Sequence record: OZ470804.1
Source: a phage
Direction: 5' to 3' (one strand)
DNA: 64,000 bases
Shown here: positions 3,046 through 55,920 of the stretch, piece by piece
Layout: the number at the start of each line of letters is the position of its first letter
Numbering within the stretch: the first letter of the stretch is position 1
The notes under the pieces: generated by a model
Databases searched by the model: none
Seen by the model: only the letters and a program-made list of their open reading frames with translations
What the model was told of the DNA's origin: nothing
Program-made: the position numbers and the translations under genes

Positions 3046-3375
3046 TTAGTCTGCCAACCTTAAATTGAAATTAACACCAAATTTTTCACACACTTCCAAC
3101 ATATACTCAAGGGAAACATTCCCAGTGAGGTGGATTATGTTGGATACACGAGCCTGAGAGATACCACAAATTTTAGCAACTTGCTCTTGAGAAAGACCTC
3201 TGGATTTAATCTCTCTCTTAAAACGATGTGCAACGAAGTCTCTCATTTCGTCTACATCCATTGGACAAATATAACTCTCCATTTCAGCCTCTCTATCAGC
3301 CTCCCAATCATCTTGTGGGGCATAAGGGTCAAAAACCTCATTCATCTTTCTTCTTCCGTTTGCGTGAAGTGTCAA
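3046..3375 (-). CDS. HTH (XRE-like) DNA-binding protein
   Basis: GLSQEQVAKICGISQARVSNIIH helix-turn-helix motif; alternative start at 3345 would remove overlap with next ORF. Confidence 0.5.
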   Translation of the reverse strand: MTLHANGRRKMNEVFDPYAPQDDWEADREAEMESYICPMDVDEMRDFVAHRFKREIKSRGLSQEQVAKICGISQARVSNIIHLTGNVSLEYMLEVCEKFGVNFNLRLAD

Positions 3376-3935: not shown

Positions 3936-4297
3936 AATGACCTCAAAGTTATATTAAATTTTGTATTACATTGAGTATAAAAATAAGCTATAACACCTGA
4001 CTTGTCAACAGATTTTATAGCTTATTTGGCAGATTTTTTATAAGGCTACTGCCATCCTTCCATACCGAACCGTGCCTAACCTGACCATGCCACACCTTAC
4101 AATACCAAACATTACTTAAAAACCCTCTTAGAAGACTCTTAAGTGATGTAATCGAATTTTAATGTAGCTCCGATTAACTACCCATACCTGACCAGACCTT
4201 GCCAAACCTTACCTCACCCAACTACACCGAACCTCATTAAAAGACCCTCTTAAAAGACCTTTTAAAAAGGAGCCTCCGAAGAGGCTACCTAGTCAAC
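3936..4297. repeat. structured intergenic leader, copy 1 (paralog of 5344-5772)
   Basis: shares modules GGCAGATTTTTTATAAGGCTACTGCCATCCTTCCATAC, TTTTAATGTAGCT-loop hairpin and C/A-rich G-poor tracts with the second copy. Confidence 0.7.
4262..4287 (-). terminator. intrinsic terminator (minus strand)
   Basis: hairpin AGCCTC-CGAA-GAGGCT with A-run on plus strand (T-run on minus) just downstream of ORF 4298-4738. Confidence 0.55.
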
Positions 4298-4740: not shown

Positions 4741-5772
<1,032 letters not shown>

Positions 5773-5961
5773 TCAACAACTTTCTAATAAAGTTTTATGA
5801 AGATTTTGCTTAACGACCCGCCTCACATGCCTGTGCTCTTTCTTAATAAAGAGTGACCTCTTCTTGATAGAGCGCCTATTCTTGTAAGTGTTGCTAGGGT
5901 ACTTATCATGAACCGGACAACAGCCACCCGGATTTGTAAACTTGATAATCTCTCTTTTCAC
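5773..5961 (-). CDS. small basic hypothetical protein
   Basis: 62 aa ORF abutting ligase gene; highly basic, low complexity. Confidence 0.3.
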   Translation of the reverse strand: MKREIIKFTNPGGCCPVHDKYPSNTYKNRRSIKKRSLFIKKEHRHVRRVVKQNLHKTLLESC

Positions 5962-8868: not shown

Positions 8869-11579
8869 GTCTTACCTACCTTACCAGTGCCTGTAACAAG
8901 CGTCTTACTCTTTAATCCAAGATTTTTTGATGCTTGACCATACATTCTATCAATAATTTCCTTAACATCAGGTACATCTTTGGTTGGAACCTCTAAAGAG
9001 ACCTCATCGTGGTAACTACAGACCCACCTAGCACCAATAGCGGGCTTCCTACCATTTAGAACTGTAAGCTTGCGCTCTGTTAACTCTCTGTTAGCCAAGT
9101 TAATACCCTCATTCTGCACCTGCGCCTCACTGCCCATAAGTGTGTAATTCAATAACTTATGTGGAGATTTACACCATAACCACGCTCCAGCAACTTTGAT
9201 ATAACCACCTTTGGCAATTGCAGAAGTTTTTCCGAAAACCTCTTCAAGTGCTTTCTTAGTTGCTTTGAAGTCTTCCTCTAACCTGTCCAGAAGCTTTTTA
9301 ATCTTAGGCAGACGCACAAAGTAAGTTTGTTTAGTCAATGCACCTTCTTCCGTAGATGATGCCTTGATAGTTTTTGCAAACTTCTCGTCTCCGGCTCCAA
9401 ATAACAGGGCGTAGATACCATTCTTAGCCTTCTTACGGCCTTTTGTAATCTCGTGAAGAAGTTCCTCATCCTGTGTCTCCCTACAAAGAATAATATCCTC
9501 TTCTTTGTTAAGACCAAAGTAAATACTGTTCAGTGTATGCGCATCAGTCCCTGTATAGACTTCATAGAGGTCATTCTCAGCATCATAACGAAGATACTTG
9601 TCAGTTTCTGGGTTAAGATACTTATCAAGATGCTTACAATAGTATCTACCATCCTCTTGCTTAGTGAACTCTACTGACTCTTTGCCCTCAGTGACCGCTT
9701 TAGTGAAGTCTTCATCACCCATAAAGTTACAAAGAAGAACTAGCTGGGCTGAGTTTTGGTCTACGGAGATGATGTCTGTACCATCTTCACAAGTCCACAC
9801 TTCCCTCATAGGCGCTCCATAGACAGCAGCACCAGACGGTACGTTTACAATGCCATATTGTGTCATACGTCCAGTTGAAGTACCAAACACCATTGCACCA
9901 GCACTAAGGCGACCATCTGGACGAATCTGGTTCAACCAACCTTTTTCATCATCCTTTGAGTTCTCAATAGTTCTGCGTCGGTGCATCAAAGTATAGTACT
10001 TAGCAATCTTCTGCCCAAGCTCACCTTCAATCGTATCATAAGATGATTCAGTAAGTTTTGGTGAAGTACGGATTAAGCAAGGTTCAAGCAAATCTGTGTA
10101 TTTCTTCACAGACCAGTTATGCTCGATGTACTGTACACCTTCGTGTTCAACATAACTCAAACCACACCGCTCAACCATTTCCTGCCACTTAGGATGCTTT
10201 GTAATCATCTTTTTATTGTCTTTGAAACGACAAACTTTGACAGGGCGACCATCTGAGTCTTTCTTGTAATTCCAGTCATCTGGAATCCAACCAACTGATT
10301 TCAAGTAGTCTTTAACAACTGCTACCTGAGTCATGCGAGAAACTTCGAACTCAATTGGTGTATATGGTGCATCAATCAAACCTGTGTAGCGACTTGACTC
10401 AAGTTCAAAGTGGTTAACAACATGACTGTTATAGTACTTCACAGTTTTGACTGTTTTTACTGGCTTCCAGTCTTTGCATTTCTTACCAATCTTTGCGTTC
10501 AACTCATTGCAAATTGCACGAGCATCCTTCATTGCTACAAAACCTTCCTTGTACTCTTCACCAGTTACAGAGTTGGTTGGTGTATAGCAATTTCTCTTTT
10601 CAATGTTAAAAATCTTTGTAGTTGGCTTACCAAATGGCTTGATTTCGTATGTCTGCATCTCACCGTTACGCACCTGTTGACGATACTTTGTCTTAGGATA
10701 CTTGGTAATCCTCTTCAGTCCATCTGCATGACCAAATGTTTCAACATACTCATTCCAAGCTTTTGCAAACTCTTCTCCAGTGACTTTACCTTTGGTCTTA
10801 ATAGTTGGAGGAAGGTGTGGTTCAACCTCTGAAGCAAGCTCATTAGTCAACTTGTCAAGTTCCTTTACATGGAACTCCATAAGCTCTTTATCAGCTTTCC
10901 AACCATTGATAGCTTGTTGACTCATCCAGAAAGATGTTTCTTTAGCTCGCATGTAGGTTTCATAAGTGTCTATGCCACACTTCTTAAGCTTGAGATACTC
11001 ATTATCAAGTGCCCGTTTAGTTTTGGCGTTAATACGGATATCTTCTACAACACGAGTGAAGATTTCTGCATTCCACACACCCCAATGTTCAATCTCTGGT
11101 TTACGAACACCAACACGAGCACCCCATGCAGCCAAGCCATGAGCACCTTTATAACCCTTTGGAGTTGGTCTATCCATCCACTGAACACGAGACTGGATAA
11201 GAGAATCCTGAAAGAAATTACTCCACGGCTTACACTTTGGATTATCAAAGTTCCATAAATCCGGTGCAATGTGATTGAAAACCCACCAGTCATAACCTAG
11301 ACCATTATGAATGCAAAGACGTTTTGCCTTTAACGCAAACTCAATACCTTCACGTAAGCCACCCTTAATGTACTTGGTATACTTGTGACCGAGGATAGGC
11401 TCATCTGTAAAGACCCATACAGGTGGCTCTTCATCGTCAGATTTATAGTCTGCGAAAGCCATTACGTGCACTTTAGTGAACTCAAGGAGTAAACCATCAG
11501 TTTCTGTATCACCAACTAAATGTAAGTTTTTAAAATCTACGTTTTCCATTTTTACTCCCTCTAAAATCATTAACCTCAT
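8850..11579 (-). CDS. DNA polymerase, family A
   Basis: exonuclease motif LVGDTETDG, motif B-like KNGIYALLFGAG, motif C YHDEVSLEV; 909 aa. Confidence 0.9.
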   Translation of the reverse strand: MRLMILEGVKMENVDFKNLHLVGDTETDGLLLEFTKVHVMAFADYKSDDEEPPVWVFTDEPILGHKYTKYIKGGLREGIEFALKAKRLCIHNGLGYDWWVFNHIAPDLWNFDNPKCKPWSNFFQDSLIQSRVQWMDRPTPKGYKGAHGLAAWGARVGVRKPEIEHWGVWNAEIFTRVVEDIRINAKTKRALDNEYLKLKKCGIDTYETYMRAKETSFWMSQQAINGWKADKELMEFHVKELDKLTNELASEVEPHLPPTIKTKGKVTGEEFAKAWNEYVETFGHADGLKRITKYPKTKYRQQVRNGEMQTYEIKPFGKPTTKIFNIEKRNCYTPTNSVTGEEYKEGFVAMKDARAICNELNAKIGKKCKDWKPVKTVKTVKYYNSHVVNHFELESSRYTGLIDAPYTPIEFEVSRMTQVAVVKDYLKSVGWIPDDWNYKKDSDGRPVKVCRFKDNKKMITKHPKWQEMVERCGLSYVEHEGVQYIEHNWSVKKYTDLLEPCLIRTSPKLTESSYDTIEGELGQKIAKYYTLMHRRRTIENSKDDEKGWLNQIRPDGRLSAGAMVFGTSTGRMTQYGIVNVPSGAAVYGAPMREVWTCEDGTDIISVDQNSAQLVLLCNFMGDEDFTKAVTEGKESVEFTKQEDGRYYCKHLDKYLNPETDKYLRYDAENDLYEVYTGTDAHTLNSIYFGLNKEEDIILCRETQDEELLHEITKGRKKAKNGIYALLFGAGDEKFAKTIKASSTEEGALTKQTYFVRLPKIKKLLDRLEEDFKATKKALEEVFGKTSAIAKGGYIKVAGAWLWCKSPHKLLNYTLMGSEAQVQNEGINLANRELTERKLTVLNGRKPAIGARWVCSYHDEVSLEVPTKDVPDVKEIIDRMYGQASKNLGLKSKTLVTGTGKVGKTWYAVH

Positions 11580-11609
11580 ACATTACTGCAAAAAATTATA
11601 AAAAGCAAG

Positions 11610-11638
11610 TTGACAATGCACTTGACAAGGTGTTAATC
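11610..11638 (+). promoter_or_regulatory. putative promoter with tandem TTGACA boxes
   Basis: AAAAAGCAAGTTGACAATGCACTTGACAAGGTGTTAATC; A-rich upstream element. Confidence 0.4.
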
Positions 11639-11806
11639 TTTGCGAAGTGGGTTTTTACTTAAAAGGTTACTTAACAGTTTAACTATACAGATACTTTAAA
11701 AGTCTTAAAAGATTATTTAATAGCTTTTAAAAAGCTTTAAAGTATAACGTATAGAATACGTTAAGATAAAAGATTAAAACTTAATAGTTACTTAAAAGAG
11801 GTTTAC

Positions 11807-27372: not shown

Positions 27373-27526
27373 AACTTGACAAGGTGGTGTGAGTCTTGAT
27401 AGGCTTACATCATCTTTTTTATTGGATGTTAGATATGGCAGAGAGCATCATTGGCCTGTTCATAGGTTCTGTTTTACTAGGGTTCTTTTTAGGACTCTCT
27501 TATTGTGAGTTGAGAGATAAGTTAAA

Positions 27527-30306: not shown

Positions 30307-31188
30307 ATGAAAACATCTATCCGTGTTATAATTCATTCACCGACAAAAGGGTCTCATGAAGAAGAGTTTAACATCATCCAGTTCCCTTCTGGTGAGATTG
30401 GTGGACACTTTTCACAAGAGCTTGTTGACTTTACTGCTCACGCAGCATCATCCATCAACAATGTGATTATGATTGTAAAAGGCTATGATAAAGACACATT
30501 GTTTGCTGTGGCACTTGCTAAAGAAGCAATTGATGATTTAGTTCCTCATGAATATGCCTTAAAGACTGTCATCTTTTACTACTTACCAAATGCACGATAT
30601 GACCGTCACATGTTTAAAGGTGATGCAGCAGCTTTGAAGGTTTTTGCTAAACAGGTTAATGCAATGGGGTTTGGTGCGGTCTGTGCAGTTGACCCTCACA
30701 GTTATGTGCCAGATAACCTGTTTAACTGCTTCCAAAGTATTCCTCAAAATGAAATTGCAGTCCACTATGCAAATGACCCACTGGTTGATTACTTAGTAGC
30801 CCCAGATGCAGGTGCTTCTAAGAAGATTGCAGAGACTGCTAAAGAGGTGGATAAACCATACATCACAATGTCTAAAGTACGTAACCTTCAGACTGGTGAA
30901 ATTACTGGTATGCGAATCCTTGATGATGTGGATTTGACAGATAAAACTGTCATGATTCTTGATGATATCTGTGATGGTGGTCGAACCTTCATAGAAGCAG
31001 CTAAACATCTTCGTGAAGCAGGTGCAAAACGTGTGGAACTCTATGTAACACATGGTATCTTCTCTAAAGGTGTTGAAAACCTTCTTGACAATGGTATTGA
31101 CCACATCTACACTACAAACTCTTTAGGGGAAGCTAAAGACCGTGGTTTAACACATTATGGTCAAGTTACTGTAGCAAACCTTGATTAA
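30307..31188 (+). CDS. ribose-phosphate pyrophosphokinase (Prs) family protein; candidate ADPR-pyrophosphate synthetase
   Basis: PRPP-binding loop VMILDDICDGGRT and HGIFS flexible-loop motif. Confidence 0.7.
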   Translation: MKTSIRVIIHSPTKGSHEEEFNIIQFPSGEIGGHFSQELVDFTAHAASSINNVIMIVKGYDKDTLFAVALAKEAIDDLVPHEYALKTVIFYYLPNARYDRHMFKGDAAALKVFAKQVNAMGFGAVCAVDPHSYVPDNLFNCFQSIPQNEIAVHYANDPLVDYLVAPDAGASKKIAETAKEVDKPYITMSKVRNLQTGEITGMRILDDVDLTDKTVMILDDICDGGRTFIEAAKHLREAGAKRVELYVTHGIFSKGVENLLDNGIDHIYTTNSLGEAKDRGLTHYGQVTVANLD

Positions 31189-35959: not shown

Positions 35960-35964
35960 AGTGT

Positions 35965-35994
35965 TTGACAAGGGGCTTCAAAACCCCTTAGAAT
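35965..35994 (+). promoter_or_regulatory. sigma70-type promoter with spacer hairpin
   Basis: TTGACA-18 bp-TAGAAT; spacer contains GGGGCTTCAAAACCCC palindrome. Confidence 0.55.
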
Positions 35995-39776: not shown

Positions 39777-40100
39777 ATGCAGATTAATGGAAGAGACTTT
39801 GTAGCCGTTTACTACGAGAAAGGTAAAGAAGTTGGCGTAGCACAAGTATCTTATGGCAATGGTAAGTGGCTATATGGAACAATCGCAGTAGTAGGCACAA
39901 GAAGTGATACAAAAACTTTTAAAGATTGTGTTGAACTTCTTGAAGAATCCATTCAGAACCATTGGTGTCTGATATGGATGACTGACAACGAAGTGATAGA
40001 ACGTTTCAAAAAGATTGACATCAACATTGACAGTATTGAGCATGTTGATTTATATGAGCTAACTGAGAAGGTAAACTATGAAAGCTCTAGAGGTAATTGA
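39777..40100 (+). CDS. hypothetical protein
   Basis: 107 aa ORF. Confidence 0.45.
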   Translation: MQINGRDFVAVYYEKGKEVGVAQVSYGNGKWLYGTIAVVGTRSDTKTFKDCVELLEESIQNHWCLIWMTDNEVIERFKKIDINIDSIEHVDLYELTEKVNYESSRGN

Positions 40101-41369: not shown

Positions 41370-41600
41370 GGGCTTTTTCATTTCAGAATTGTGCAGGTAT
41401 ATTTCTATAGAGAAATCTGTAGAGGAAATTTTGAACTCCAAAGAGAAAATTCATTTTCAAACTGTGCAGATAATCTCCAAAGGACTTTTTCATTTTCAAA
41501 ACGTGCAGACCCCGCTCAGGTCGGGCAAGAAAAATCATTTTAGAATTGTGCAGGTAGGTGGGTGCAGGTGTGGATGTCGCCATTTCTCACAAGGCTACCA
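41370..41600. repeat. iteron-like array (4-5 copies of TCATTTTCARAAYTGTGCAGRT)
   Basis: copies near 41380, 41450, 41495, 41540 plus GGGTGCAGGTG; about 45-55 bp spacing. Confidence 0.6.
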
Positions 41601-42019: not shown

Positions 42020-42020
42020 A

Positions 42021-42109
42021 AAGTACTTTACAGGGGGCTTAAAAGCTGATATCTTAAGCCCCAGATAAAGAGCTTTACTAAATTAACCCTTAAACTAGGA
42101 GATTCAAAA
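42021..42109 (+). promoter_or_regulatory. leader cassette type A, copy 1
   Basis: AAGTACTTTACA, GGGGCTT..AAGCCCC hairpin, AGATAAAGAGCTTTAC, TAAACTAGGAGATTCAAAAATG. Confidence 0.65.
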
Positions 42110-42493
42110 ATGGCTTATCGTGCACCTAAATTCATCAACAAAGACAACTTTCGCAACGCACTGGAGAAGTCACTTGATGAAAATTTTAAAGGTAACATTA
42201 TCGTTGTTCACGCATTCAATTTTAAGTATGATGTAAACGGGAATAGAATCAACCATTACACAGCAACCATGTTAGATGGTACGCTATCAAGTGAAAAAGC
42301 TGTACTGAATGCACTTGCAGGACGTGGTAAAAACCTGATAAGATGCGATAAGAGACGTTATCAGGGTGGCGCATATGGTTATGATGATGCTGTTTACCAT
42401 CTTGAAAATATGGGCTATCAAGTAGAAAAAGCTGGAGCATCACAAATCATCGGCAGCGATGGTTATGTAACTATCTTCAAAATTAACAAATAA
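42110..42493 (+). CDS. small hypothetical protein (array gene 2)
   Basis: 127 aa ORF driven by type A cassette. Confidence 0.55.
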   Translation: MAYRAPKFINKDNFRNALEKSLDENFKGNIIVVHAFNFKYDVNGNRINHYTATMLDGTLSSEKAVLNALAGRGKNLIRCDKRRYQGGAYGYDDAVYHLENMGYQVEKAGASQIIGSDGYVTIFKINK

Positions 42494-42579
42494 AGTACTT
42501 TACAAGGGGCTTATAGTTCGATAAAGTAAGCCCCAGATAAAGAGCTTTACCACTCAATCCTAAATTGGAGAACTTAAAA
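42493..42579 (+). promoter_or_regulatory. leader cassette type A, copy 2
   Basis: same cassette with compensatory stem variant GGGGCTTAT..TAAGCCCC. Confidence 0.65.
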
Positions 42580-42837
42580 ATGGCTATTATCAAAAACGTT
42601 GTAATTACTGCAAAGACTCGTGATGACGCTCGCGTTATGGCTAAAAAGTTATGCGGGAAAGTGGTTGACAACGGAAAACAATCCGCTGTAAGGTGGAACG
42701 TGAAGTCGGATAAGCAATTAACCTTAAAACGTAATTCAAACAACCTTTTTAAAGGTGTAAAATCACTCGGTAAAGTGAACGTGTTTACCAAAAAAGGCTA
42801 TAAAATGCACTTATCATTAACTGGCAATTTAATCTGA
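42580..42837 (+). CDS. small hypothetical protein (array gene 3)
   Basis: start set to ATG 42580 by analogy with other cassettes; ORF-track start 42565 is TTG. Confidence 0.5.
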   Translation: MAIIKNVVITAKTRDDARVMAKKLCGKVVDNGKQSAVRWNVKSDKQLTLKRNSNNLFKGVKSLGKVNVFTKKGYKMHLSLTGNLI

Positions 42838-42839
42838 TA

Positions 42840-42925
42840 AAGTACTTTACAAGGGGCTTAAAAGTTGGTATCTTAAGCCCCAGATAAAGAGCTTTACCAC
42901 TAAATCCTAAACTGGAGATTCTAAA
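42840..42925 (+). promoter_or_regulatory. leader cassette type A, copy 3
   Basis: TTTACA-17 bp-TATCTT promoter-like spacing overlapping the hairpin. Confidence 0.65.
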
Positions 42926-43222
42926 ATGAAATTATCGAATAAAGTTCGTGAAAATCTAAGCAAGTTACTCAACAAAATTGATTTTATCGAGACATCAAGA
43001 AATAGTCATGATGTTATGGAATGGTTACACGGCAAAATAAAAGGCCGTCGTGTAGTGATTTGCTTATGGAATAGTTGCAGGGAATATAAAAAACCTGTAT
43101 TGCAAGTTAATATTTATGATGATACTTTTAAAAGTCCTGTAAAGTCTAAAAGCGATTTATTAGAATCCTATGAGATAACTGTAAATGGCAAAGTGTCACG
43201 TAAAGAGGAAACACCATGTTAA
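42926..43222 (+). CDS. small hypothetical protein (array gene 4)
   Basis: 98 aa ORF. Confidence 0.55.
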   Translation: MKLSNKVRENLSKLLNKIDFIETSRNSHDVMEWLHGKIKGRRVVICLWNSCREYKKPVLQVNIYDDTFKSPVKSKSDLLESYEITVNGKVSRKEETPC

Positions 43223-43548
43223 TGACTGGTATCACTGCAATCATTGCCATTTTCGCGCTATATAAGGCATATAAAGCCTATAATCTAGCAAATAAGGCAA
43301 TCACACAGCAGGTTAGCAATAACCTTGTAGAAAGCTTTCTAGGGCGTCTCAGTGATGAGCAAATAAAGCGGTTAGAAATGAGCTTCAGATTTCAATCAAA
43401 AACTTATCAAATCAGCGACATTTTCAAAGATGATTTTCAGCTAGTCGATGATTATAATGCTCTGATAAATGCTTTAAATGTCAGTGACTTAAAAGACTAT
43501 TACGCTGTAATTGTTCAAGAATTAAGCAAACGAAAAAATTTCTCTTGA
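43216..43548 (+). CDS. small membrane protein (array gene 5)
   Basis: N-terminal TM helix MLMTGITAIIAIFALY. Confidence 0.5.
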   Translation: MLMTGITAIIAIFALYKAYKAYNLANKAITQQVSNNLVESFLGRLSDEQIKRLEMSFRFQSKTYQISDIFKDDFQLVDDYNALINALNVSDLKDYYAVIVQELSKRKNFS

Positions 43549-43638
43549 TTTTAGTTTTAAAAACAAGTAAATTATCAATCAACGGGGAGGGAATGACCTT
43601 CCCCACTAAGTAAAGTCCTTAAACTAGGAGATTCAAAA
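43545..43638 (+). promoter_or_regulatory. leader cassette type B, copy 1 (promoter + leader hairpin + RBS)
   Basis: TTGATT-17 bp-TAAATT then GGGGAGGGAATGACCTTCCCC hairpin then TAAACTAGGAGATTCAAAAATG. Confidence 0.65.
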
Positions 43639-43911
43639 ATGTATACTACTAACAACGGTCGCACTCTAAACGTAACCCTACGCCACTATGTGAACGGTGT
43701 AATGCACTTCGAGGATTTACAAGCTGAACAGCACATTTTGGATTGGCAACTTGCAGGACTCCAAAAAACTGCTACCGGATACGGGAAAAAGATTCCAACT
43801 AGCTGGAAAGTATACTACGAAGGACGTTTGCGCAGAATTTATCAGGATGTATATAGCAATAGCGCAACAAGTTACATCATGGTAAAAGGTAAAAAATTAC
43901 ACTTAGTATAA
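43639..43911 (+). CDS. small hypothetical protein (array gene 6)
   Basis: 90 aa ORF. Confidence 0.55.
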   Translation: MYTTNNGRTLNVTLRHYVNGVMHFEDLQAEQHILDWQLAGLQKTATGYGKKIPTSWKVYYEGRLRRIYQDVYSNSATSYIMVKGKKLHLV

Positions 43912-43996
43912 AGTACTTTACAAGGGGCTTATAGTTCGATAAAGTAAGCCCCAGATAAAGAGCTTTATCACTCAATCCTAAATTGGAGATTCTAAA
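43911..43996 (+). promoter_or_regulatory. leader cassette type A, copy 4
   Basis: near-identical to copy 2. Confidence 0.65.
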
Positions 43997-44401
43997 ATGG
44001 CTATTAATAATCGTGAGTTATCAATCTTAAAAGCACGTTTGACCGTTAACCGGATTAATGTTATTACGTCGTCAGCACCTGATGAGACATTGCACAACAT
44101 TATCGGGAAGATTCAAAGTGTTATCTTAGACGTTGAAAGCGTAAAAAACTCATTGGCTGACGTTGCAGCAGGTATCACGCTAGACGGTGCACAATATGAA
44201 ATGGCTGACATGTTAGGCAAATCTAAGGTAATGAATAAAGAGCTTGATTTAAAAATGTTCCGCTTTGCCGTGAAAGTGTGGCTATCTGTCGAGTATGACG
44301 CAAATTTTGCAATCGCTGACTTTTTCGCAACATGGTTGCAACGTAATTTGACAAATCACGATTTTCGTGATGTCTGTGATGCAATTTATGCAGAACTCTA
44401 A
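43997..44401 (+). CDS. small hypothetical protein (array gene 7)
   Basis: 134 aa ORF. Confidence 0.55.
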   Translation: MAINNRELSILKARLTVNRINVITSSAPDETLHNIIGKIQSVILDVESVKNSLADVAAGITLDGAQYEMADMLGKSKVMNKELDLKMFRFAVKVWLSVEYDANFAIADFFATWLQRNLTNHDFRDVCDAIYAEL

Positions 44402-44410
44402 AAAATTTTG

Positions 44411-44502
44411 TTGACACTGGTTTTTAGATAGATTAAATTACACATCAACGGGGAGGGAATGACCTTCCCCACTAAATAAAGTCCTAAACTGGAGATTCTA
44501 AA
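44411..44502 (+). promoter_or_regulatory. leader cassette type B, copy 2
   Basis: TTGACA-17 bp-TAAATT then GGGGAGGGAATGACCTTCCCC. Confidence 0.65.
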
Positions 44503-44700
44503 ATGGCTATTATTAACGGTTTAACCATTGAAACTACACACATCAAAGATATCAAAGTTGGCGATATAGTCCTTTCCCACGGCGTAGAAAAAACTGTCAC
44601 TGCAAAGGATATCAAAGAGGATTCTTTCATGGGTAGAACTCTCTTCGGTGATTCTTATTGCTTAGGTTATCTTGCAGTTTTAAAAGTTGTCAAAAATTAA
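44503..44700 (+). CDS. small hypothetical protein (array gene 8)
   Basis: 65 aa ORF. Confidence 0.5.
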   Translation: MAIINGLTIETTHIKDIKVGDIVLSHGVEKTVTAKDIKEDSFMGRTLFGDSYCLGYLAVLKVVKN

Positions 44701-44706
44701 GTAATA

Positions 44707-44792
44707 AAGTACTTTACAAGGGGCTTAAAAAGTTGGTATCTTAATCCCCAGATAAAGAGCTTTACACAGTCCTTAAACTAGGAGATTAAAAA
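44707..44792 (+). promoter_or_regulatory. leader cassette type A, copy 5
   Basis: GGGGCTTAAAAAGTTGGTATCTTAATCCCC variant. Confidence 0.6.
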
Positions 44793-45041
44793 ATGATGAA
44801 TTATTTAAACATTCCCGACACTTGCAAACTGTTAACGCAACCAGAAAATTTAGGTAAGGCTTACCTATACCATATGCCAAATAATACGGCAAAAACTTAT
44901 AGTTACACTGTTAACCGATTCACGGCATACGCTGCAAAAAACGGTTACAAGGTTGTTACTCAAAAAGTAACACTGTTTACAACTGTTGAGGAACTCCCCA
45001 CGGTTGCAGTTAAACTGATTTTTTCAAAGAAAACTAAATAG
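44793..45041 (+). CDS. small hypothetical protein (array gene 9)
   Basis: 82 aa ORF. Confidence 0.5.
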   Translation: MMNYLNIPDTCKLLTQPENLGKAYLYHMPNNTAKTYSYTVNRFTAYAAKNGYKVVTQKVTLFTTVEELPTVAVKLIFSKKTK

Positions 45042-45126
45042 ATTTCTTTACACGGGGTTATCAAGCTGATAAGATAGCCCCAGATAAAGAAATTTATCAA
45101 ATAAATCCTAAACTGGAGATTCAAAA
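45041..45126 (+). promoter_or_regulatory. leader cassette type A, copy 6 (diverged)
   Basis: GGGGTTATC..GATAGCCCC stem keeps pairing despite sequence change. Confidence 0.55.
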
Positions 45127-45969: not shown

Positions 45970-46058
45970 ACAAGCCTGATAAAAATCTGTAAATTGTCAA
46001 TCAACGGGGAGGGGATGACCTTCCCCACTAAATAAAATCCTAAACTGGAGATTCAAAA
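45967..46058 (+). promoter_or_regulatory. leader cassette type B, copy 3
   Basis: TAGACA-17 bp-TAAATT then GGGGAGGGGATGACCTTCCCC. Confidence 0.65.
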
Positions 46059-46400: not shown

Positions 46401-46432
46401 TCAATAACTTACAAAAAACTTTTAAAAAAGTG

Positions 46433-46461
46433 TTGACAATGCCCCTTGACATTGGTAACTT
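46433..46461 (+). promoter_or_regulatory. putative promoter with tandem TTGACA boxes
   Basis: AAAAAGTGTTGACAATGCCCCTTGACATTGGTAACTT. Confidence 0.4.
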
Positions 46462-46529
46462 TGTTCGAGGGGGTTTATCTAAAAGGGATTAACTTAAAAG
46501 ATTCTTTATAGATAAACTTAAAAAATTGC

Positions 46530-46622
46530 TTGCAATCAGATATCAAAACAAGTAAATTACTAATCAACGGGAGGCGATAACCTCCCCACTAAGTAAAGTC
46601 CTTAAACTAGGAGATTCAAAAA
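46530..46622 (+). promoter_or_regulatory. leader cassette type B, copy 4
   Basis: TTGCAA-17 bp-TAAATT then GGGAGGCGATAACCTCCCC variant hairpin. Confidence 0.6.
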
Positions 46623-47153: not shown

Positions 47154-47243
47154 TTTGTCAATCAACGGGGAGGGAATGACCTCCCCCCACTACATAAAAC
47201 CCTTAAACTAGGAGATTCAAAAATGGTGATAAGAAAGAAGTAG
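47128..47243 (+). promoter_or_regulatory. leader cassette type B, copy 5 (orphan, drives only a 6-codon ORF)
   Basis: TTGACG-17 bp-TAATTT then hairpin then RBS then ATGGTGATAAGAAAGAAGTAG. Confidence 0.55.
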
Positions 47244-47245
47244 TG

Positions 47246-48110
47246 ACCATGTTAATAGCTTGTTAAAAAGATTAGACACTTGTTAGGAACTTGTTAATTA
47301 TCTTAACAAAATAACTCTTAAAAATTAACTTGTTAGCTCTTGTTAGTCATCTGTTAAGATTCTGTAAAGCCTATTCAGCACTTGTTAAGAAACTGTTAAA
47401 GCCTTGTTAGTTCTGTTAAGAATCTGTTAAGACCTTTGAAGAGTTGTTAAGAAGATGTGAGAGCTGTTAAGAGATTGTTAAGGATATTTTAAAATTTTGC
47501 AAAGGGGATGTTACAGGGATGTTAAGGGCTACCAAGCAGATATACATCTTCTACAGATATTTTTGAGTTCCTTCAAAGACCCTAAAAAATGACTTGATAG
47601 TCCTATTTTATAAAAATTTTAAAATTCTGAATAATTACCTAGACAGTCTTTTAAAAATACAGGTAGAAACAGGCTTATAAGATACCTTGTTAGTACCGTG
47701 TTAGACCTTGTGAGATAAGGTCTGTGAAGATATTCCTGTTAAGTTTGTTAAAACAGTCTATATAGAGGCTTAGTAATACCTAGTGAACACCTATAGAGAG
47801 TCACATAGCTTACATAGAGATTAAGAGGTGTATAGGAGCTTCTAAGAGTGTGTAGAGAGATGGTTAAGATGATTGTATAGGTTGTTTAGAAGGCTTGTTA
47901 GAAGAGTGTTTAGATGGCTATTTAGAAGGGCTATACAGAGGGCTATTAAGACCACTAGATAGTTACTAAGATACTATATAGTACTATATAACTATATAGA
48001 GAGTAAGATTAAGAAGGTTGTTAAGAAGGATAGATATTTTATTCACATATGATGGTGACCCAGAGGTTGGGACAACCGATAAAATTTTATAAAAAATATA
48101 AATTTCGTAA
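47246..48110. repeat. non-coding block of degenerate ~11 bp periodic repeats (YTGTTAAG / TTGTTAG / TATAG units)
   Basis: more than 20 copies of CTGTTAAG-like units between 47270 and 47480, further TAGAG/TTAAG/TATAG units to 48050; no ORF longer than 60 codons. Confidence 0.7.
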
Positions 48111-48137
48111 ATTTTACTCAATAAAAAGCCCCCGATT
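48110..48137 (-). terminator. intrinsic terminator (minus strand)
   Basis: AGCCCCC..GGAGGCT hairpin with plus-strand A-run, downstream of ORF 48158-48751. Confidence 0.45.
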
Positions 48138-48157
48138 AAGGAGGCTCTTAAGATATT

Positions 48158-48751
48158 TTAAATCAGTGTTTCCAGAACTGTTTTTAATGATGACTTGGTT
48201 GTCTGATAAAAATGAGTAAATCCATTGTTGTTATCAAATACCTGCATCATGATATCATCTCCCTTGATTGGGTACACTCGGATATCATAGTGAAAACCAT
48301 TAAAGACACAAGAACCACTACAGAATGCTCTAAAGTCATCCACTGAGATATACTCTTCATGACCTGTGATTTTTATACAAACACCTTTACTCGGTCTCTT
48401 AGGGTTGATATCTTCCATCACAGACATACTCTGTCCACCAAGAGATACCATAGTGACTACTTTACGGTTCTTCTGTCTAAAGTACATCTTAACTTTCTGT
48501 AAAGTGTCTTCATAGAACGGATAAGACTTCTCTACAAAGATTCCTTCAAGTGGCTCTTTACCATTTTTAACTTCTCTGTAACCACGTACTGCAAAAACAA
48601 TCTGTTTTAATCTGTCAAGACTTTCTTCAGAGAGTGCTTCTTGAGCATCACTCCAGTCAAGGACTAGATAGTTACCTTCAACATCTTTTAAGTTATCTTT
48701 TTCCATAACTATCACACCATTATCGTAAAACTTGGTAAGCTGGAACTGCAA
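48158..48751 (-). CDS. hypothetical protein
   Basis: 197 aa ORF. Confidence 0.5.
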   Translation of the reverse strand: MQFQLTKFYDNGVIVMEKDNLKDVEGNYLVLDWSDAQEALSEESLDRLKQIVFAVRGYREVKNGKEPLEGIFVEKSYPFYEDTLQKVKMYFRQKNRKVVTMVSLGGQSMSVMEDINPKRPSKGVCIKITGHEEYISVDDFRAFCSGSCVFNGFHYDIRVYPIKGDDIMMQVFDNNNGFTHFYQTTKSSLKTVLETLI

Positions 48752-49184
48752 ACTTGTTGCCGTTGTTCTTAATGAGGTCTTCTTCTGTTACTAAGAATGT
48801 AATCCCACACAAGTGTGTGTAGTGGCTATCATACTCAAATATTTTAAGTAAGTATTTACCGTCGTGATAAACAGATTCTACTACACCTTTTGCAACAATC
48901 TTTCCAGTCTTGAAATCTTTAAGAGGGTATACATTACCAACTTTAGGGACTGTTTTCATCTCAGGTTCTTTTAGCTTCTCACCAGCTTCTACATCACCTA
49001 GTAAGTGAGAACTTTCAAACGCTACATATTGCATATAAGCCTCTGAGCATTCCCAGATAAAACAATGTACAAGAACCTTAGCAGCATGTCTTGAACAATT
49101 CAACTTATCACAAATTTCTTTATACATTTCATCTTTAGTTGAGTTGTCAAGCATTGCTCTTTGCACTACTTCTTTAATTTTCAT
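48720..49184 (-). CDS. hypothetical protein
   Basis: 154 aa ORF. Confidence 0.5.
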   Translation of the reverse strand: MKIKEVVQRAMLDNSTKDEMYKEICDKLNCSRHAAKVLVHCFIWECSEAYMQYVAFESSHLLGDVEAGEKLKEPEMKTVPKVGNVYPLKDFKTGKIVAKGVVESVYHDGKYLLKIFEYDSHYTHLCGITFLVTEEDLIKNNGNKFAVPAYQVLR

Positions 49185-49602
49185 AAGCTCTCCGAATAAC
49201 CCTATTAAGCATCTCTAAAGTCAGCTTTCCAGATTCTAAATGTGGCATAACAAGCTTTAAAGCTTTTTCAACATCATGCACAACATCTATTATACCTTCT
49301 GCATAGGCTTCTACAAGGATATCTTTTACATTTTGTGATTTACCTTTTTGTGGTATCACTAGATGCATATCAAACTCATTTGCTTGAGGATGGTTCTTAC
49401 CACGCCAGAAACCGTCCTTATCAAAGCTTATAAAGTTATCCTCATTAAAATTAATACCACAAACCTTAAACTTATCTAAAACTATGCAGTTGAGAGGGTA
49501 ATCATCACTTGCATCATTCATTCCAAGAAACTTAACAGTAGCTATATACCTCTGTGTCTTTGCATCTACAACGTCAAGCTCTTTACCTATAAGCTCTTTC
49601 AT
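49174..49602 (-). CDS. hypothetical protein
   Basis: 142 aa ORF. Confidence 0.5.
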   Translation of the reverse strand: MKELIGKELDVVDAKTQRYIATVKFLGMNDASDDYPLNCIVLDKFKVCGINFNEDNFISFDKDGFWRGKNHPQANEFDMHLVIPQKGKSQNVKDILVEAYAEGIIDVVHDVEKALKLVMPHLESGKLTLEMLNRVIRRAYEN

Positions 49603-49654
49603 TTCGCTACCTTCTAAGTTCCTACAAAGGGGCTATCAAGTAACCCCTAAGTTA

Positions 49655-49879
49655 TTACTCAGACTTTTCAGTCTTCTTATCGGATTTCTTACTAGTCTTC
49701 TTCTCAGCTTTCTGTTCAGGTTCCTTCTCAGAAGTTGCCTTGATAACCATGTCAAGAAGCTCTGATAAGTCACTCTTCAGCAGAGTAACAGGCTGCTCAT
49801 TGTAGAAGTTTTTGTCAAGATAAACTTTGAACTCTTCAATAGATGGAAATCCAAAAATTGGTACAGGTGTCTTAATCAT
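49655..49879 (-). CDS. hypothetical protein with lysine-rich C-terminus
   Basis: 74 aa ORF. Confidence 0.4.
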   Translation of the reverse strand: MIKTPVPIFGFPSIEEFKVYLDKNFYNEQPVTLLKSDLSELLDMVIKATSEKEPEQKAEKKTSKKSDKKTEKSE

Positions 49880-49955
49880 TACTTAGTCTCTCCATAGGCA
49901 TCTTTCAAGATTGCCTTGTTAATCATTTCAGCGATTGCAAAACGAACACATACAG

Positions 49956-50489
49956 CTATAATTGTAGGTTGCATTCTTTACTTACCTCTTCAAGTTTAAC
50001 CTCAGAATCCTTAAGTCGTTTCTTATGAACTCTGAATCTTAGTAGTGAGATGATGATACCAGCTAAAGGAACAGCATACAAGTACCAAACATCATATACC
50101 TTTGCGGTAATCTGTGTAATGGTCAAGTCTTGAGCTATGGAGCTGATTGCTGATACGGCTAGTAATGTTGCTAAGAAGAAAACCAGTATCATAGCAATAT
50201 TCAGACAACCTCTGGCATGGTATTCATGCTTAATGCACTTATTCTTCTCTTCAACAACCCTGTTGTAGTCATTTGTAAAGTCTCTGTAGAAAGCTTTCAG
50301 GTATTCTTGAGTGTAGCCTTCAAAGCAACCTGTACCGTACCAATAATCACCACCAAAGTGTGCTATGATACCGGTATCTCCATTTGGTTTGGTTACTCTC
50401 AAAGAAGTATGATGACGCGTATCCTGATAATCTATCTTATATCTTTCTTCGTAAATCATTTTCCAACCCCTCTCAATCGTTTGTTCCAC
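49956..50489 (-). CDS. membrane protein
   Basis: two predicted TM helices in C-terminal half. Confidence 0.5.
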   Translation of the reverse strand: MEQTIERGWKMIYEERYKIDYQDTRHHTSLRVTKPNGDTGIIAHFGGDYWYGTGCFEGYTQEYLKAFYRDFTNDYNRVVEEKNKCIKHEYHARGCLNIAMILVFFLATLLAVSAISSIAQDLTITQITAKVYDVWYLYAVPLAGIIISLLRFRVHKKRLKDSEVKLEEVSKECNLQL

Positions 50490-50674
50490 TCAAGGTCAAC
50501 AAGCCTTTGCAGGACTTTCCCTCTAGGTGTTACACCTTTTAAATCTGCATCGTAGCAATGGTAAAAGTCACCTTCAGCGTGTTTACCATAGCATTTTCTG
50601 ATATTCTGACTTCTACGATATTGTTCTAATAGGGACAGCTTGTAGTAATCTTCAACTGTAGTTAGCTTTTTCAT
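50456..50674 (-). CDS. hypothetical protein
   Basis: 72 aa ORF. Confidence 0.4.
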   Translation of the reverse strand: MKKLTTVEDYYKLSLLEQYRRSQNIRKCYGKHAEGDFYHCYDADLKGVTPRGKVLQRLVDLEWNKRLRGVGK

Positions 50675-50757
50675 TCTTTCACCACGAATCCTCTTAAGAA
50701 ACTAAAAAGGGAACTACCTCTCGATAGCTCCCATCATAGTTAACATTGTATACTCGG

Positions 50758-51339
50758 TCAAGAGTATTTTTTAGGCAGTAATGCGCTACGTTTGTTACTC
50801 TCTTCACTCAACAGTGCGATGAAGTCATCACCTTTGCCTTTCCACGGGCTGAATGAAGGGATATGCTCACGAATAGCTTCAATCACTGTCTTAAGTGCTG
50901 TATTTTTCATCCACCAATCAGAATCTGCTAATGCCACTACGTAGTATCCACCTTCATCAGTCAGAATAGGTTCTGAGATACATGGTGAAATCACAGTGGT
51001 AATGACTGAACCATTGTTCATGTAGTATGTACGCTTAATAACTTTTTCAAGAAGCTTGTGAAGGTCACCAAACAGTGTTACAAGCTCTTTGTGGTCAATG
51101 TCTTTTTCGAGATTTGCTCGATACTTCAAAAGTGCAGCATCAACTTCTCTGTCATTAAACTTGAAGTACTGAACTTCCTCAACAAGACAAACACTGATGT
51201 TGTTGACATTCATAGTCAACTTGCAAACTTTTGCAGGAGAATTGATATTTGGTTGAAAAAGTGCAATACACCCTTCGATGTTTCCAAAATGTTGTACTAA
51301 TGTCACTTGTGGAGTGATACTCTGTTGCTCTTCGGACAT
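50758..51339 (-). CDS. hypothetical protein
   Basis: 193 aa ORF. Confidence 0.5.
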   Translation of the reverse strand: MSEEQQSITPQVTLVQHFGNIEGCIALFQPNINSPAKVCKLTMNVNNISVCLVEEVQYFKFNDREVDAALLKYRANLEKDIDHKELVTLFGDLHKLLEKVIKRTYYMNNGSVITTVISPCISEPILTDEGGYYVVALADSDWWMKNTALKTVIEAIREHIPSFSPWKGKGDDFIALLSEESNKRSALLPKKYS

Positions 51340-51683
51340 TACAGTTTCCTCATTAAATACTTTTTAAGTTGTGTGTTAGGTTTCTCAAAAACTTCTATAG
51401 AAGATATCTTGACAGATTCACCACGCATACCTGTATGTTTGAATATATAGTACTCTAACATCCCTATATACTTTGCTGGTAAGTCATGCTTGACATACAC
51501 CGTTACAGAATCTTCAAATTCAACAACCTTTGTACCATCTTTGTAGTTAAACTCTTTAGGATGGTTATAGTTGTCAATATCGTACATTAAAAAGAGTCTT
51601 TTCCGTTGCATATCAAGCTTATTGGTTAAAGACTCTTTGATGTCTGAGAAGTTTTTATACACTGTGACATGGAGCTTACTCAT
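51339..51683 (-). CDS. hypothetical protein
   Basis: 114 aa ORF. Confidence 0.5.
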   Translation of the reverse strand: MSKLHVTVYKNFSDIKESLTNKLDMQRKRLFLMYDIDNYNHPKEFNYKDGTKVVEFEDSVTVYVKHDLPAKYIGMLEYYIFKHTGMRGESVKISSIEVFEKPNTQLKKYLMRKL

Positions 51684-51969
51684 CGTTAAACTCTCTGACG
51701 AAGAAATAGTTGACTTTATTATTACCTACCATAAGGTCAAAGCAGGTGTTCTCAAAAGGTTTGTTGTAGGCATCATATGAAGTGTACGTATCAGCTACTT
51801 GTTTGGTGTTGAGCTTTTTACTTGATGGATTTAAGAGGCCACCATACAGTTTCTTGATAGCCTCTTCTACAACAGACCAGATGATTTCGTCAGTAATTTC
51901 TTCGTACAGGTCAAGTTCACGCTCTAGTGAGAAGTCACAAATTGGGAAAATAACCTGTACTTTACTCAT
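51676..51969 (-). CDS. hypothetical protein
   Basis: 97 aa ORF. Confidence 0.45.
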   Translation of the reverse strand: MSKVQVIFPICDFSLERELDLYEEITDEIIWSVVEEAIKKLYGGLLNPSSKKLNTKQVADTYTSYDAYNKPFENTCFDLMVGNNKVNYFFVREFNDE

Positions 51970-52388
51970 TAACGAATAACCTGTGAGACTTGAATTGCTT
52001 CAGTTACTGATAAGTCACCCACTTTCTCTTCTTTGATAAAAGTGAAGGTGAGTTCAACAGGCTCTTGCTCTTCTTGCTCAACCGGAACACCGTTAAGCTC
52101 ATCAAAGATTGATTGAGTTGTCCAGTCTTCTCCACCATCTGGATAGTGGATGGCATAAAGAGGGAACTCTAAATTATACCAAGCAAAAACAGGGCAACCA
52201 TCTGCATCATCTCGGCATCTGTGGAGATATGTGTTTGTACCTTCAAAATGCAAATGGAGATTACCATTCTTCTCAAAAAGAAGAGCATCTTGCAGGTCTA
52301 GTTCCTCATTTTCACTGTAACGGCTGACATCGACTTTAACGTGAATATGACTGTTATTATTCATAAAAACCTCTCTCTGCTTGTTCAA
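51969..52388 (-). CDS. hypothetical protein
   Basis: 139 aa ORF. Confidence 0.5.
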   Translation of the reverse strand: MNKQREVFMNNNSHIHVKVDVSRYSENEELDLQDALLFEKNGNLHLHFEGTNTYLHRCRDDADGCPVFAWYNLEFPLYAIHYPDGGEDWTTQSIFDELNGVPVEQEEQEPVELTFTFIKEEKVGDLSVTEAIQVSQVIR

Positions 52389-52755: not shown

Positions 52756-52769
52756 AGTTTTCTCCTTAG

Positions 52770-52796
52770 AAAATAAAAAAGGCTCCCGAAGGAGCC
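52770..52796 (-). terminator. intrinsic terminator (minus strand)
   Basis: GGCTCC-CGAA-GGAGCC hairpin with plus-strand A-run. Confidence 0.65.
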
Positions 52797-52806
52797 TATG
52801 AAGATA

Positions 52807-54772: not shown

Positions 54773-54785
54773 TAAATATCCTTAT

Positions 54786-54812: not shown

Positions 54813-54819
54813 TTTATAC

Positions 54820-55637: not shown

Positions 55638-55879
55638 AGATAATCCTCTTGTCTTCTGTAATTTTGAAAGAACAGGTACAGACCAATTTCAGAGGATGAA
55701 TAGTAGAGTAACTCTACCCTTTTTGATTCCTTACAGTGATTGGTATTTTTACCTTTCTTCGGGTTGTTTGATTTTCTCATTAAGTCTCCTTTGTAGAACA
55801 AGGCAGACCTACAGCTTTAAGTAAGATGGTACAGTAATCCATACAACAAGTCAAGAACTATTGCAAGTTAAAAAAGTTG

Positions 55880-55920
55880 TTGACAAAGTACTTGACAAGG
55901 TGTAGCCTTATAAATACTTA
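55880..55920 (+). promoter_or_regulatory. putative promoter with tandem TTGACA boxes
   Basis: AAAAAGTTGTTGACAAAGTACTTGACAAGGTG; -10 element not resolved. Confidence 0.35.

Follow-up and report, generated by a model that had tools for sequence, protein, structure and literature searches.

Three rightward promoters of the Felix O1-like phage analyzed here carry the hexamer TTGACA twice. These sites are very probably sigma70 promoters in which the upstream copy (box 1) serves as the -35 element, and the downstream copy (box 2), which lies within the spacer, behaves across genera as a separately selected cis-element. The doubled -35 box is conserved and represents an apparently undescribed sigma70 promoter variant. 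The window, that is, the whole stretch of 64,000 nucleotides under analysis (record OZ470804.1), was assigned to Felixounavirus on the basis of a 4-kb piece around the boxes, which shows 97% identity to many genomes of that genus. Members of Felixounavirus are Felix O1-like myophages with Escherichia and Salmonella as hosts. The genes of the window fall into four blocks (Table 1), and the three sites are predicted to head the rightward transcription units that run from gene 97 onward (site 1), from gene 22 onward (site 2) and from gene 41 onward, including the tRNA cluster (site 3). The operons served by these promoters are rich in intrinsic terminators, and an Rfam scan returned only tRNAs from the window and nothing from four loci of the T4-like phages described below.

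The initial annotation had reported tandem TTGACA boxes following an A-rich tract at 11610, 46433 and 55880, and direct reading of the sequence confirms them, with the second hexamer at 11622-11627, 46446-46451 and 55892-55897 and offsets of 12, 13 and 12 bp, respectively. The base preceding box 1 is G and that preceding box 2 is C at all three sites, and the A-rich tracts upstream of sites 1, 2 and 3 contain AAAAAATTATAAAAAG, AAAAACTTTTAAAAAAG and TTAAAAAAG. Same-strand pairs of exact TTGACA hexamers no more than 40 bp apart occur in the window at offsets of 12 (three pairs) and 13 (one pair) and at no other, so that four pairs are observed at offsets of 11-13 versus 0.043 in a null of 1000 block shuffles. 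The pattern TTGACA-N6-TTGACA, with at most one mismatch, was found seven times in the window against an expectation of 1.02, and seven occurrences were reached in none of 100 shuffles. The fourth exact pair (40015) and a near-match triple at 31073-31102 lie inside ORFs and are attributed, from a reading by hand, to Ile/Leu-Asp codons recurring every fourth residue. In a complete relative genome, that of ASO1A (87.6 kb), the non-coding tandem sites are limited to the same three.

Table 1. Gene blocks, promoter elements and related features of the window
Feature	Position	Strand	Sequence and evidence
Leftward replication block	DNA polymerase gene last, start ~11549-11579	-	
Long rightward block	11807-47153	+	
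Second leftward block	48158-55779	-	
Second rightward block		+	With 22 tRNA genes
Candidate trans-factor, HTH_3 (Cro/CI-type) DNA-binding protein	3046..3375	-	Pfam HTH_3, E = 6e-10
Putative leftward DNA polymerase operon promoter	11580..11608	-	TTGCTT (plus-strand 11603-11608)-N17-TAATGT (11580-11585)
Site 1 A-rich UP-like tract	11590..11604	+	From sequence; AAAAAGCAAG portion invariant across genera
Site 1 box 1, TTGACA, probable -35	11610..11615	+	18 bp 5' of TAATCT; invariant, 33 sequences (8 distinct)
Site 1 box 2, CTTGACA in spacer	11621..11627	+	About -25 to -19; invariant; 4/6 inter-box bases vary
Site 1 putative extended -10, TGT-TAATCT	11631..11639	+	TGG-TAGTCT in Mooglevirus; T, A and final T kept, middle varies
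Site 1 predicted transcription start	11645..11647	+	6-8 nt past -10; CGAAG context, compare CGAGG at site 2
Site 2 A-rich UP-like tract	46414..46429	+	From sequence
Site 2 box 1, TTGACA, probable -35	46433..46438	+	17 bp 5' of TAACTT; invariant, 28 sequences (14 distinct)
Site 2 box 2, CTTGACA in spacer	46445..46451	+	Offset 13; TTGACA invariant, preceding base C or A
Site 2 putative -10, TAACTT	46456..46461	+	TAGATT/TACATT in other genera; TAnnTT kept, middle varies
Putative leftward promoter near site 3	55826..55854	-	TTGACT-N17-TACCAT, with TTGCAA another 12 bp upstream
Site 3 A-rich tract, TTAAAAAAG	55868..55876	+	From sequence
Site 3 box 1, TTGACA, probable -35	55880..55885	+	17 bp 5' of TAGCCT; invariant, 33 sequences (11 distinct)
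Site 3 box 2, CTTGACA in spacer	55891..55897	+	Offset 12; TTGACA invariant; 6/6 inter-box and 3/5 post-box bases vary
Site 3 putative -10, TAGCCT	55903..55908	+	Relatives TAGGCT, TAAGTT, TAGTGT; TAnnnT kept
Single box, non-member	27376..27417	+	TTGACA-N18-TAGGCT over nrdD terminator hairpin (AAGGTGGTGT...ACATCATCTT, then T run)
Single box, non-member	35965..35994	+	TTGACA-hairpin AGGGGCTTCAAAACCCCT-TAGAAT, between rIIA and rIIB; promoter in ASO1A annotation
Look-alike 5' of tRNA cluster	57913..57946	+	TTGACA-N17-TAATAT; second box TTGATA = hairpin 3' arm (GGGTATTGACA...TTTGATACCC)

Homologues of the three sites were gathered with anchors placed outside the boxes, both from IMG/VR contigs and from the GenBank genomes of Felixounavirus, Suspvirus and Mooglevirus, and yielded 33, 28 and 33 sequences for sites 1, 2 and 3, with 8, 14 and 11 distinct core-region variants, respectively. 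Throughout these 94 sequences both boxes read TTGACA at every site, and no indels are seen among box 1, box 2 and the -10 element. Variation in the whole region is greatest between the boxes (the bases there include, at site 3, AAGTA, AAGGA, AATGA, TTCCT, AAGCA, AGCCT and AGGGG), and the four bases from box 2 to the -10 element of site 2 all vary. When the spacer positions are taken together, none of the 18 that belong to box 2 varies versus 23 of the other 34 (Fisher p = 8.8e-7). The proposal of a single promoter family with a duplicated box is hence borne out by two hexamers that are invariant across three genera amid spacer bases that change.

A TAnnnT hexamer lies 17-18 bp past box 1 at all sites, and its T, A and final T are kept across Felixounavirus, Suspvirus and Mooglevirus as the middle bases change (Table 1), which points to box 1 as the -35 element. 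The putative -10 hexamers are weak, with 3-4 of 6 matches to TATAAT, and at sites 1 and 2 they mostly have TGn directly 5' of them. This is a standard sigma70 layout, and the tandem-box promoters do not form a class outside sigma70. Box 2 occupies about -24 to -18, ends 6, 4 and 5 bp before the -10 element of sites 1, 2 and 3, respectively, and stands at distances from box 1 and from the -10 element that each change by 1-2 bp. The predicted starts of sites 1 and 2 would fall in CGA(A/G)G. Site 1 stands back to back with the putative leftward promoter of the DNA polymerase operon, the -35 element of which lies 1 bp from box 1 and the spacer of which doubles as the A-rich tract; across four genera the -10 of this leftward promoter is TAATGT, TAGGGT or TAGTGT, keeping T, A and GT, and AAGCAA is invariant. 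Site 3 is likewise back to back with a putative leftward promoter, 25 bp away, for which no footprint can be drawn because the sequence there does not change from genus to genus; at site 2 the arrangement is not divergent.

The same architecture is found in T4-like phages. When IMG/VR was scanned with the pattern TTGACA-N5/6-CTTGACA-N4/6-TAnnnT, 63 of 110 among the matches listed, Felix-like contigs aside, adjoined a gene whose product resembles gp55, the late sigma factor of T4. A further 80 loci were then fetched by means of the gp55-like protein and not of the motif, avoiding ascertainment bias, and provided 70 distinct upstream regions from environmental T4-like contigs, 68 of which present the tandem boxes in the form TTGACA-N4/5-CTTGACA-N5/6-TAnnnT. 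In these 68 regions box 1 reads TTGACA in all but one (67/68) and box 2 in 62, with one mismatch in the others; among the variants of box 2 (TTGCCA, TTGCCG, TTGCCT, TTAACA and TTGACG) TTG is kept better than ACA. The spacer is of 17 bp throughout and the offset is 12 in 52 regions and 11 in 16; since the base lost between the boxes is matched by one gained between box 2 and the -10 element, box 2 floats inside a fixed spacer, a trait common to the T4-like and the Felix-like sites. The -10 element of the T4-like regions is good, mostly TATAGT and usually with TGn, and the promoter is directed away from gene 55 and would read into the preceding gene at its 3' end. Among cultured phages, the nearest relatives are T4-like phages of marine and freshwater origin, such as Melnitz, in which box 1 reads TTGCTT. 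When the T4-like consensus was compared by BLAST with 50,697 phage records, site 3 of Felixounavirus was the only match, with up to 27 of 27 nucleotides identical (AAAAAGTTGTTGACAAAGGGCTTGACA). A hairpin between the G-rich inter-box sequence of the T4-like set and a downstream C run was considered and set aside, as no covariation is apparent by eye.

Within the Ounavirinae, doubling stops at the more distant phages of Erwinia and Pectobacterium, which have single-box promoters at the two places checked, those corresponding to sites 1 and 3. Ahead of the gene 97 homologue, Pectobacterium phage Arno162 carries CTTGACA-N17-TAGGCT, and Erwinia phages Coenus and Prophecy carry CCTTGACA-N17-TACATT. 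Upstream of the gene 41 homologue, Pectobacterium phage Wc4-1 shows CTTGACA-N17/18-(A)TACCC(T), in which N18 leads to TACCCT, and Erwinia phage phiEa104 shows CTTTACA-N17-TACACT. The doubling would therefore be derived in the clade of Felixounavirus, Suspvirus and Mooglevirus. When the -10 and start region is aligned (TACATTCTTTTCGCC versus TTAATCTTTGCGAAG), box 1 falls where the ancestral -35 stood, and box 1 of site 1 is the positional homologue of the single -35 of the Erwinia and Pectobacterium relatives. The flanks of box 2, however, with C before and (A)GGTG after, look closer to those of the ancestral box, so that more than one route to the doubling is conceivable.

In the GenBank records of ASO1A and AYO145A all three sites carry sigma70-like promoter annotations that were assigned by pattern match. 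Site 3 appears in the Felix O1 paper as P41, a sigma70-like promoter assigned in the same manner (PMC3185647). Neither those two records nor the Felix O1 paper mentions the doubling of the box, and a literature search for "two -35 elements" gave nothing usable. The published RT-PCR on Felix O1 reports a peak at 5 min for ORF22, which lies 3' of site 2, and at 25 min for ORF41/42/44 and ORF97-99 (PMC3185647); a common timing of the three promoters is not shown by these data. Temporal control in Felix O1 is described in the genome paper as unknown, with no polymerase-modifying proteins evident (PMC3185647). The searched literature contained no start-site mapping or RNA-seq for Felix O1 or the Ounavirinae, and promoter activity and start points are for this reason inferred.

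The best explanation as a whole, which we advance tentatively, is that the three sites are strong host sigma70 promoters in which box 2 provides a second docking site for sigma70 region 4; the narrower proposition that region 4 is what reads box 2 is put forward more guardedly still. As the sequence and its comparison across genera show, each site combines a UP-like A-rich tract with a consensus -35 in box 1, a spacer of 17-18 bp and a weak TAnnnT -10. Box 2, one helical turn downstream of box 1, would receive region 4 when the polymerase advances by some 12 bp at promoter escape. Alternatively, box 2 might act as a second capture register. Its effect would be to tune the initiation or escape kinetics of very strong promoters. 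The layout is shared with unrelated T4-like phages of different gene content, which argues for a common reader, most likely region 4 of the sigma70 of the host polymerase. The preference of the T4-like box 2 variants for TTG, which resembles that of sigma70 for its -35, likewise makes region 4 the simplest reader, and a phage-specific factor, as raised in the initial annotation, is possible. We know of no biochemical precedent for region 4 on a -35-like hexamer at -24 to -18 of its own promoter, the nearest precedent for a second -35-like box being the second TTGACT of lambda PR'. The float of box 2 by 1-2 bp is loose for a stereospecific contact and counts against docking of region 4. In addition, the identity of 25-27 nt to the T4-like element might stem from a cassette passed on horizontally and not from a shared reader, and the co-occurrence of a helix-turn-helix protein with the tandem boxes in the Ounavirinae fits an operator better than a docking site. 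A wider claim, that the tandem boxes represent a distinct promoter architecture recurring in virulent myophages, both Felix O1-like and T4-like, with box 2 read by region 4 in a second register and the module perhaps spreading as a cassette of about 45 bp, seems to us unlikely. Under that claim the hand-off would take place at the forward move of about 12 bp or after a phage factor repositions region 4, and, if so, a single promoter could remain active or be re-timed through polymerase takeover.

A doubtful but possible alternative to docking is that boxes 1 and 2 are the half-sites of an operator for a dimeric helix-turn-helix repressor, namely the HTH_3 protein of the phage itself, binding of which would shut off or balance the three rightward promoters and, at site 1, free the abutting leftward promoter of the DNA polymerase. 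The boxes, 12-13 bp apart, resemble dimer half-sites because TTGACAA is nearly self-complementary (TTG-A-CAA) and the center is variable and would be left uncontacted, giving a quasi-palindromic layout (TTGACAA-N-TTGACAA) with two invariant blocks around 4-6 freely varying bases; the back-to-back promoters at sites 1 and 3 would also suit a switch. Homologues of the encoded HTH_3 protein occur in 261 phage records, all of them in the tandem-box clade except for 2 weak Zymomonas matches, and none was found in the single-box Erwinia and Pectobacterium relatives. This phyletic link, however, amounts to one clade split, and many genes share such a distribution. Furthermore, the T4-like phages show the architecture and no HTH_3 homologue was found there among cultured phages, the spacing varies (12 or 13 here, 11 or 12 in the T4-like phages), and the conservation of box 1 is already accounted for by its role as -35.

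Three other readings are less likely than either docking of region 4 or an HTH_3 operator. Quite improbable is a promoter of two registers, in which box 1 would be used early by unmodified host polymerase and box 2 later by a polymerase in which a phage protein that targets the beta-flap or region 4 itself has moved region 4 to a new position, the promoter staying active through polymerase takeover. Sigma region 4, once detached from the beta-flap, can use abnormally spaced -35-like elements, as with lambda Q and in early elongation, and this counts for such a reading, as do the conservation of both boxes, the fixed placement of box 2 at 4-6 bp from the -10 element, the peak at 25 min of the genes 3' of sites 1 and 3 in spite of the early, host-type look of their promoters and the recurrence of the architecture in a second family of virulent myophages. 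No candidate polymerase-modifying protein was identified here, and the Felix O1 paper reports none (PMC3185647). With still lower probability, each box might be the -35 of a separate promoter, the two overlapping at an offset of 12 bp and each using a -10 and a start of its own. Tandem promoters are common, Felixounavirus site 3 does have TACTTA 17 bp past box 2, and a Pectobacterium relative (CTTGACAGGTG...TACCCT) aligns loosely with box 2 and TACTTA. Yet TACTTA has no final T and becomes CACTTA in Suspvirus and Mooglevirus, the hexamers 16-19 bp past box 2 at sites 1 (GAAGTG, AAGTGG, AGTGGG) and 2 (GGGGGT) are G-rich, invariant and unlike a -10, and the T4-like set presents TGTCCC or TGTAGC at that distance. 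Box 2 thus does not look like the -35 of a second promoter, and yet is conserved as strictly as a real one. Least probable, and by our estimate barely credible, is that the doubling is a functionless accident of history, that is, a 12-bp duplication or a recombination joint of promoter cassettes copied thrice. The extended similarity among the sites, above all between sites 1 and 2, and the 27 nt in common with the T4-like element would agree with it, as would the mobility in T4-type phages of promoter cassettes such as the promoter-early/stem-loop cassettes, or PeSLs (PMC2839356, PMC4122927). The invariance of box 2 over genus-level divergence, amid flanking bases saturated with changes, and its retention in 62 of 68 diverse T4-like sequences argue against it.

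Among the closest known systems are the strong early sigma70 promoters of virulent coliphages such as T4 and T5, which, like the proposed docking promoters, are read by unmodified host polymerase, stand at the head of early or middle operons and combine an A-rich upstream tract with a near-consensus -35 and a spacer of 17-18 bp. They differ in that the Felix-like -10 is weak, and to our knowledge no second conserved -35 hexamer is found in the spacer of the T4 and T5 promoters. The lambda late promoter PR' has a Q-binding element in its spacer and a second -35-like hexamer, TTGACT, that is used by sigma region 4 in a paused early-elongation complex. It resembles the present sites in having that hexamer downstream of the true -35 in one promoter region and in the many intrinsic terminators of the operons; in PR', however, the second hexamer abuts the -10 and start and acts together with Q and a -10-like pause element that spans +1 to +6. 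Visual inspection of the leaders of sites 1-3 revealed no conserved A...T pause hexamer. The lambda CII promoters (PRE, PI and PaQ; TTGC-N6-TTGC) share a direct TTG-containing repeat about one helical turn apart in the -35 region, but theirs are 10 bp apart around a poor -35, whereas here a perfect -35 is itself the first repeat, the repeats are offset by 12-13 bp, and in this virulent phage a CII homologue was not noted. A CII-type promoter was ruled out by the offset and the perfect box 1, and the sole HTH protein examined is of the HTH_3 type. In the T4 middle promoters, which depend on MotA/AsiA sigma appropriation, a phage-specific box combined with a sigma70 -10 marks a temporal class, as could be the case here, but the MotA box (TGCTTtA, at -30) stands in for the -35 at 11-13 bp from the -10, whereas here the -35 is kept and box 2 lies at 4-6 bp; no MotA box was found on the plus strand at sites 1-3.

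Several other readings of the boxes were rejected. For box 2 as the -35 of a host alternative sigma factor, inspection by eye revealed no downstream element fitting sigma32 (CTTGAAA-N13-15-CCCCATnT), sigma-E, sigma28 or sigma54. Read on the minus strand, the boxes give TTGTCA, a 5/6 match to a -35, but CTTTTT or TTTTGC stands at 17 bp, and the distance to the TATAAT at 11595-11600 is 10 or 22 bp. Sites of the pho-box, OmpR or PhoP type were set aside as well: the minus-strand TGTCA core resembles an inverted pho box, but at a spacing of 12-13 and not 11 and in the wrong orientation, and the two phage groups presumably have different hosts, judging from the marine and freshwater relatives of the T4-like set.

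Felix O1-like phages are in wide use for Salmonella typing and biocontrol. Box 2 is as conserved as the -35 itself, is located where base-specific contact by the polymerase is not expected and is common to unrelated T4-like phages, and it offers a concrete and cheap handle, with one hexamer to mutate in three promoters. Such mutation work could reveal a new regulator-operator pair or an unrecognized use of DNA by sigma70 region 4 in initiation or escape, and the tandem-box element might be useful as a compact strong-promoter design.

Finally, some sequences resemble the tandem promoters without belonging to them. The initial annotation had added single boxes at 27375 and 35965. TTGACA is indeed present at both, and the 12-mer CTTGACAAGGTG occurs exactly at 11621, 27375 and 55891, but the box at 35964/35965 reads TTTGACAAGGGG, with two mismatches to that 12-mer, and neither locus is a member of the tandem family. 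A site at 57918 (TTGACAatgtgtTTGATA) was discarded as a fourth member, since its -35 box lies in a terminator hairpin and its second box reads TTTAATA in Felix O1; the Felix O1 paper assigns this region to the bidirectional terminator t42/t43 (PMC3185647). One IMG/VR match is near-identical to site 3 but seems to fall within coding sequence; its hand translation, VDKALDKV, matches no protein of the window, and it was treated as chance. At the two single boxes the bases that follow TTGACA, AAGGTG and AAGGGG, respectively, form the 5' arm of a hairpin, and no inverted repeat pairing with AAGGTG is found at sites 1-3. At 27375 this hairpin is the nrdD terminator, with TAGGCT in its loop 18 bp from the box; the changes in its arms in ASO1A preserve pairing, and the terminator is annotated in that genome. 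The same construction recurs in the CTTTACAAGGGG repeats at 42020-45126, and all of these loci can be read as promoter and stem-loop composites akin to PeSLs, which they resemble as short, repeated, near-consensus sigma70 modules that may be mobile. The tandem-box promoters differ from PeSLs in having no stem-loop and, as second element, a -35 hexamer in place of a hairpin.

The AT-rich leaders that follow the three tandem promoters, each of which carries a TTGACA box as its -35 element and a second such box in the spacer, are conserved across genera. CT(T)AAAAGG opens every one of them, at roughly +10 to +20, and further copies of CTTAAAAG, CTTTAAAG or CTTATAAGAGG are found within them. The CTTAAAAG form is present in 18 sense and 6 antisense copies and could be a protein-binding or an antitermination (nut-like) element. 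The leader of site 1, the tandem promoter at 11610, also contains a palindrome, ACGTATAGAATACGT (11747-11761), the Mooglevirus counterpart of which is ATGTATAACATACAT. Two pairs of the palindrome are altered on both sides in Mooglevirus with pairing kept, so the palindrome must form a hairpin or else bind a dimer. Site 1 is moreover divergent from the inferred DNA polymerase promoter, and simultaneous occupancy of the two is probably not possible.

Promoter-proximal and repeated elements in the window
Feature	Coordinates	Strand or orientation	Description
Inferred DNA polymerase promoter	11580-11608	minus	-35 TTGCTT, separated by 1 bp from site 1 box 1
Leaders of tandem promoters	11646-11806, 46468-46622, 55915-56029		AT-rich, 115-160 nt, one after each promoter
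(C/T)TGTTAAG repeats	47154-48157	both	at least 11 copies in a 1-kb non-coding stretch
TCATTTTCA(G/A)AA(T/C)(T/G)GTGCAGG	41380-41570		4 spaced copies in a 500-bp non-coding region
Related non-coding regions (n=2)	3936-4297, 5329-5960	minus	
CTTTACA(A/G)GGGGCTTA...TAAGCCCCAGATAAAGAGCTTTA repeats	42020-45126		at least 7 copies, between small early ORFs
caATCAACGGGGAGGGAATGACCTTCCCCACTAA(A/G)TAAAG hairpin element, repeated	43570-43610, 44440-44480, 46000-46040, 46560-46600, 47154-47195		

The reverse complement of the (C/T)TGTTAAG repeat, CTTAACAG, is present in the tandem-promoter leaders too. The stretch in which these repeats accumulate separates convergent gene blocks and may act either as an origin or as an array bound by protein. 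The copies of TCATTTTCA(G/A)AA(T/C)(T/G)GTGCAGG look like iterons. Long periodic GGT-rich stretches (ggtaaggtttggcaaggtctggtcaggtatgggtag...), with TCTT(T/C)TAAGAGGG motifs on their flanks, are common to the two related non-coding regions, the first of which also harbors a TTGACA-N17-TATTTT promoter ahead of the operon that includes the HTH_3 (Cro/CI-type) protein gene.

Among the small early ORFs, each CTTTACA(A/G)GGGGCTTA...TAAGCCCCAGATAAAGAGCTTTA repeat consists of a promoter (TTTACA-N17-TATCTT or TAAAGT) inside a stem-loop. These elements, which are given only as 57-bp repeats in the Felix O1 paper (PMC3185647), resemble in their stem-loop-wrapped promoter the promoter-early/stem-loop (PeSL) cassettes of T4-type phages (PMC2839356, PMC4122927). 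The caATCAACGGGGAGGGAATGACCTTCCCCACTAA(A/G)TAAAG hairpin lies directly 5' of the ribosome-binding sites of several small ORFs.

TTGAxA boxes at 12-nt intervals are likewise found within ORFs, at 31073-31102 and 40015-40032. They were attributed, on reading by hand, to (Val/Leu/Ile)-(Asp/Glu) codon pairs at every fourth residue, and call for caution, since coding sequence yields the motif by chance. In an unrelated viral contig (L195, IMG/VR contig 3300...), four consecutive CCTTGACAAAGA units spaced about 12 bp apart and then a TTACAT hexamer occur on the minus strand at about 1250-1300 of the locus; this run is the doubled box in array form.

A near-invariant tandem-box promoter, TTGACA-AAGGG-CTTGACA-N5-TATAGT, is found in environmental T4-like phages, within the roughly 90 nt that precede gp55-like genes (IMG/VR loci L209-L288). 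Located about 20 nt away from the late-sigma gene start and followed by a conserved CGGTGT/CTATGT, this promoter reads in the opposite direction to the late-sigma gene, entering the end of the gene that precedes it. It could serve for antisense RNA production, for interference with read-through into gene 55 or for replication priming.
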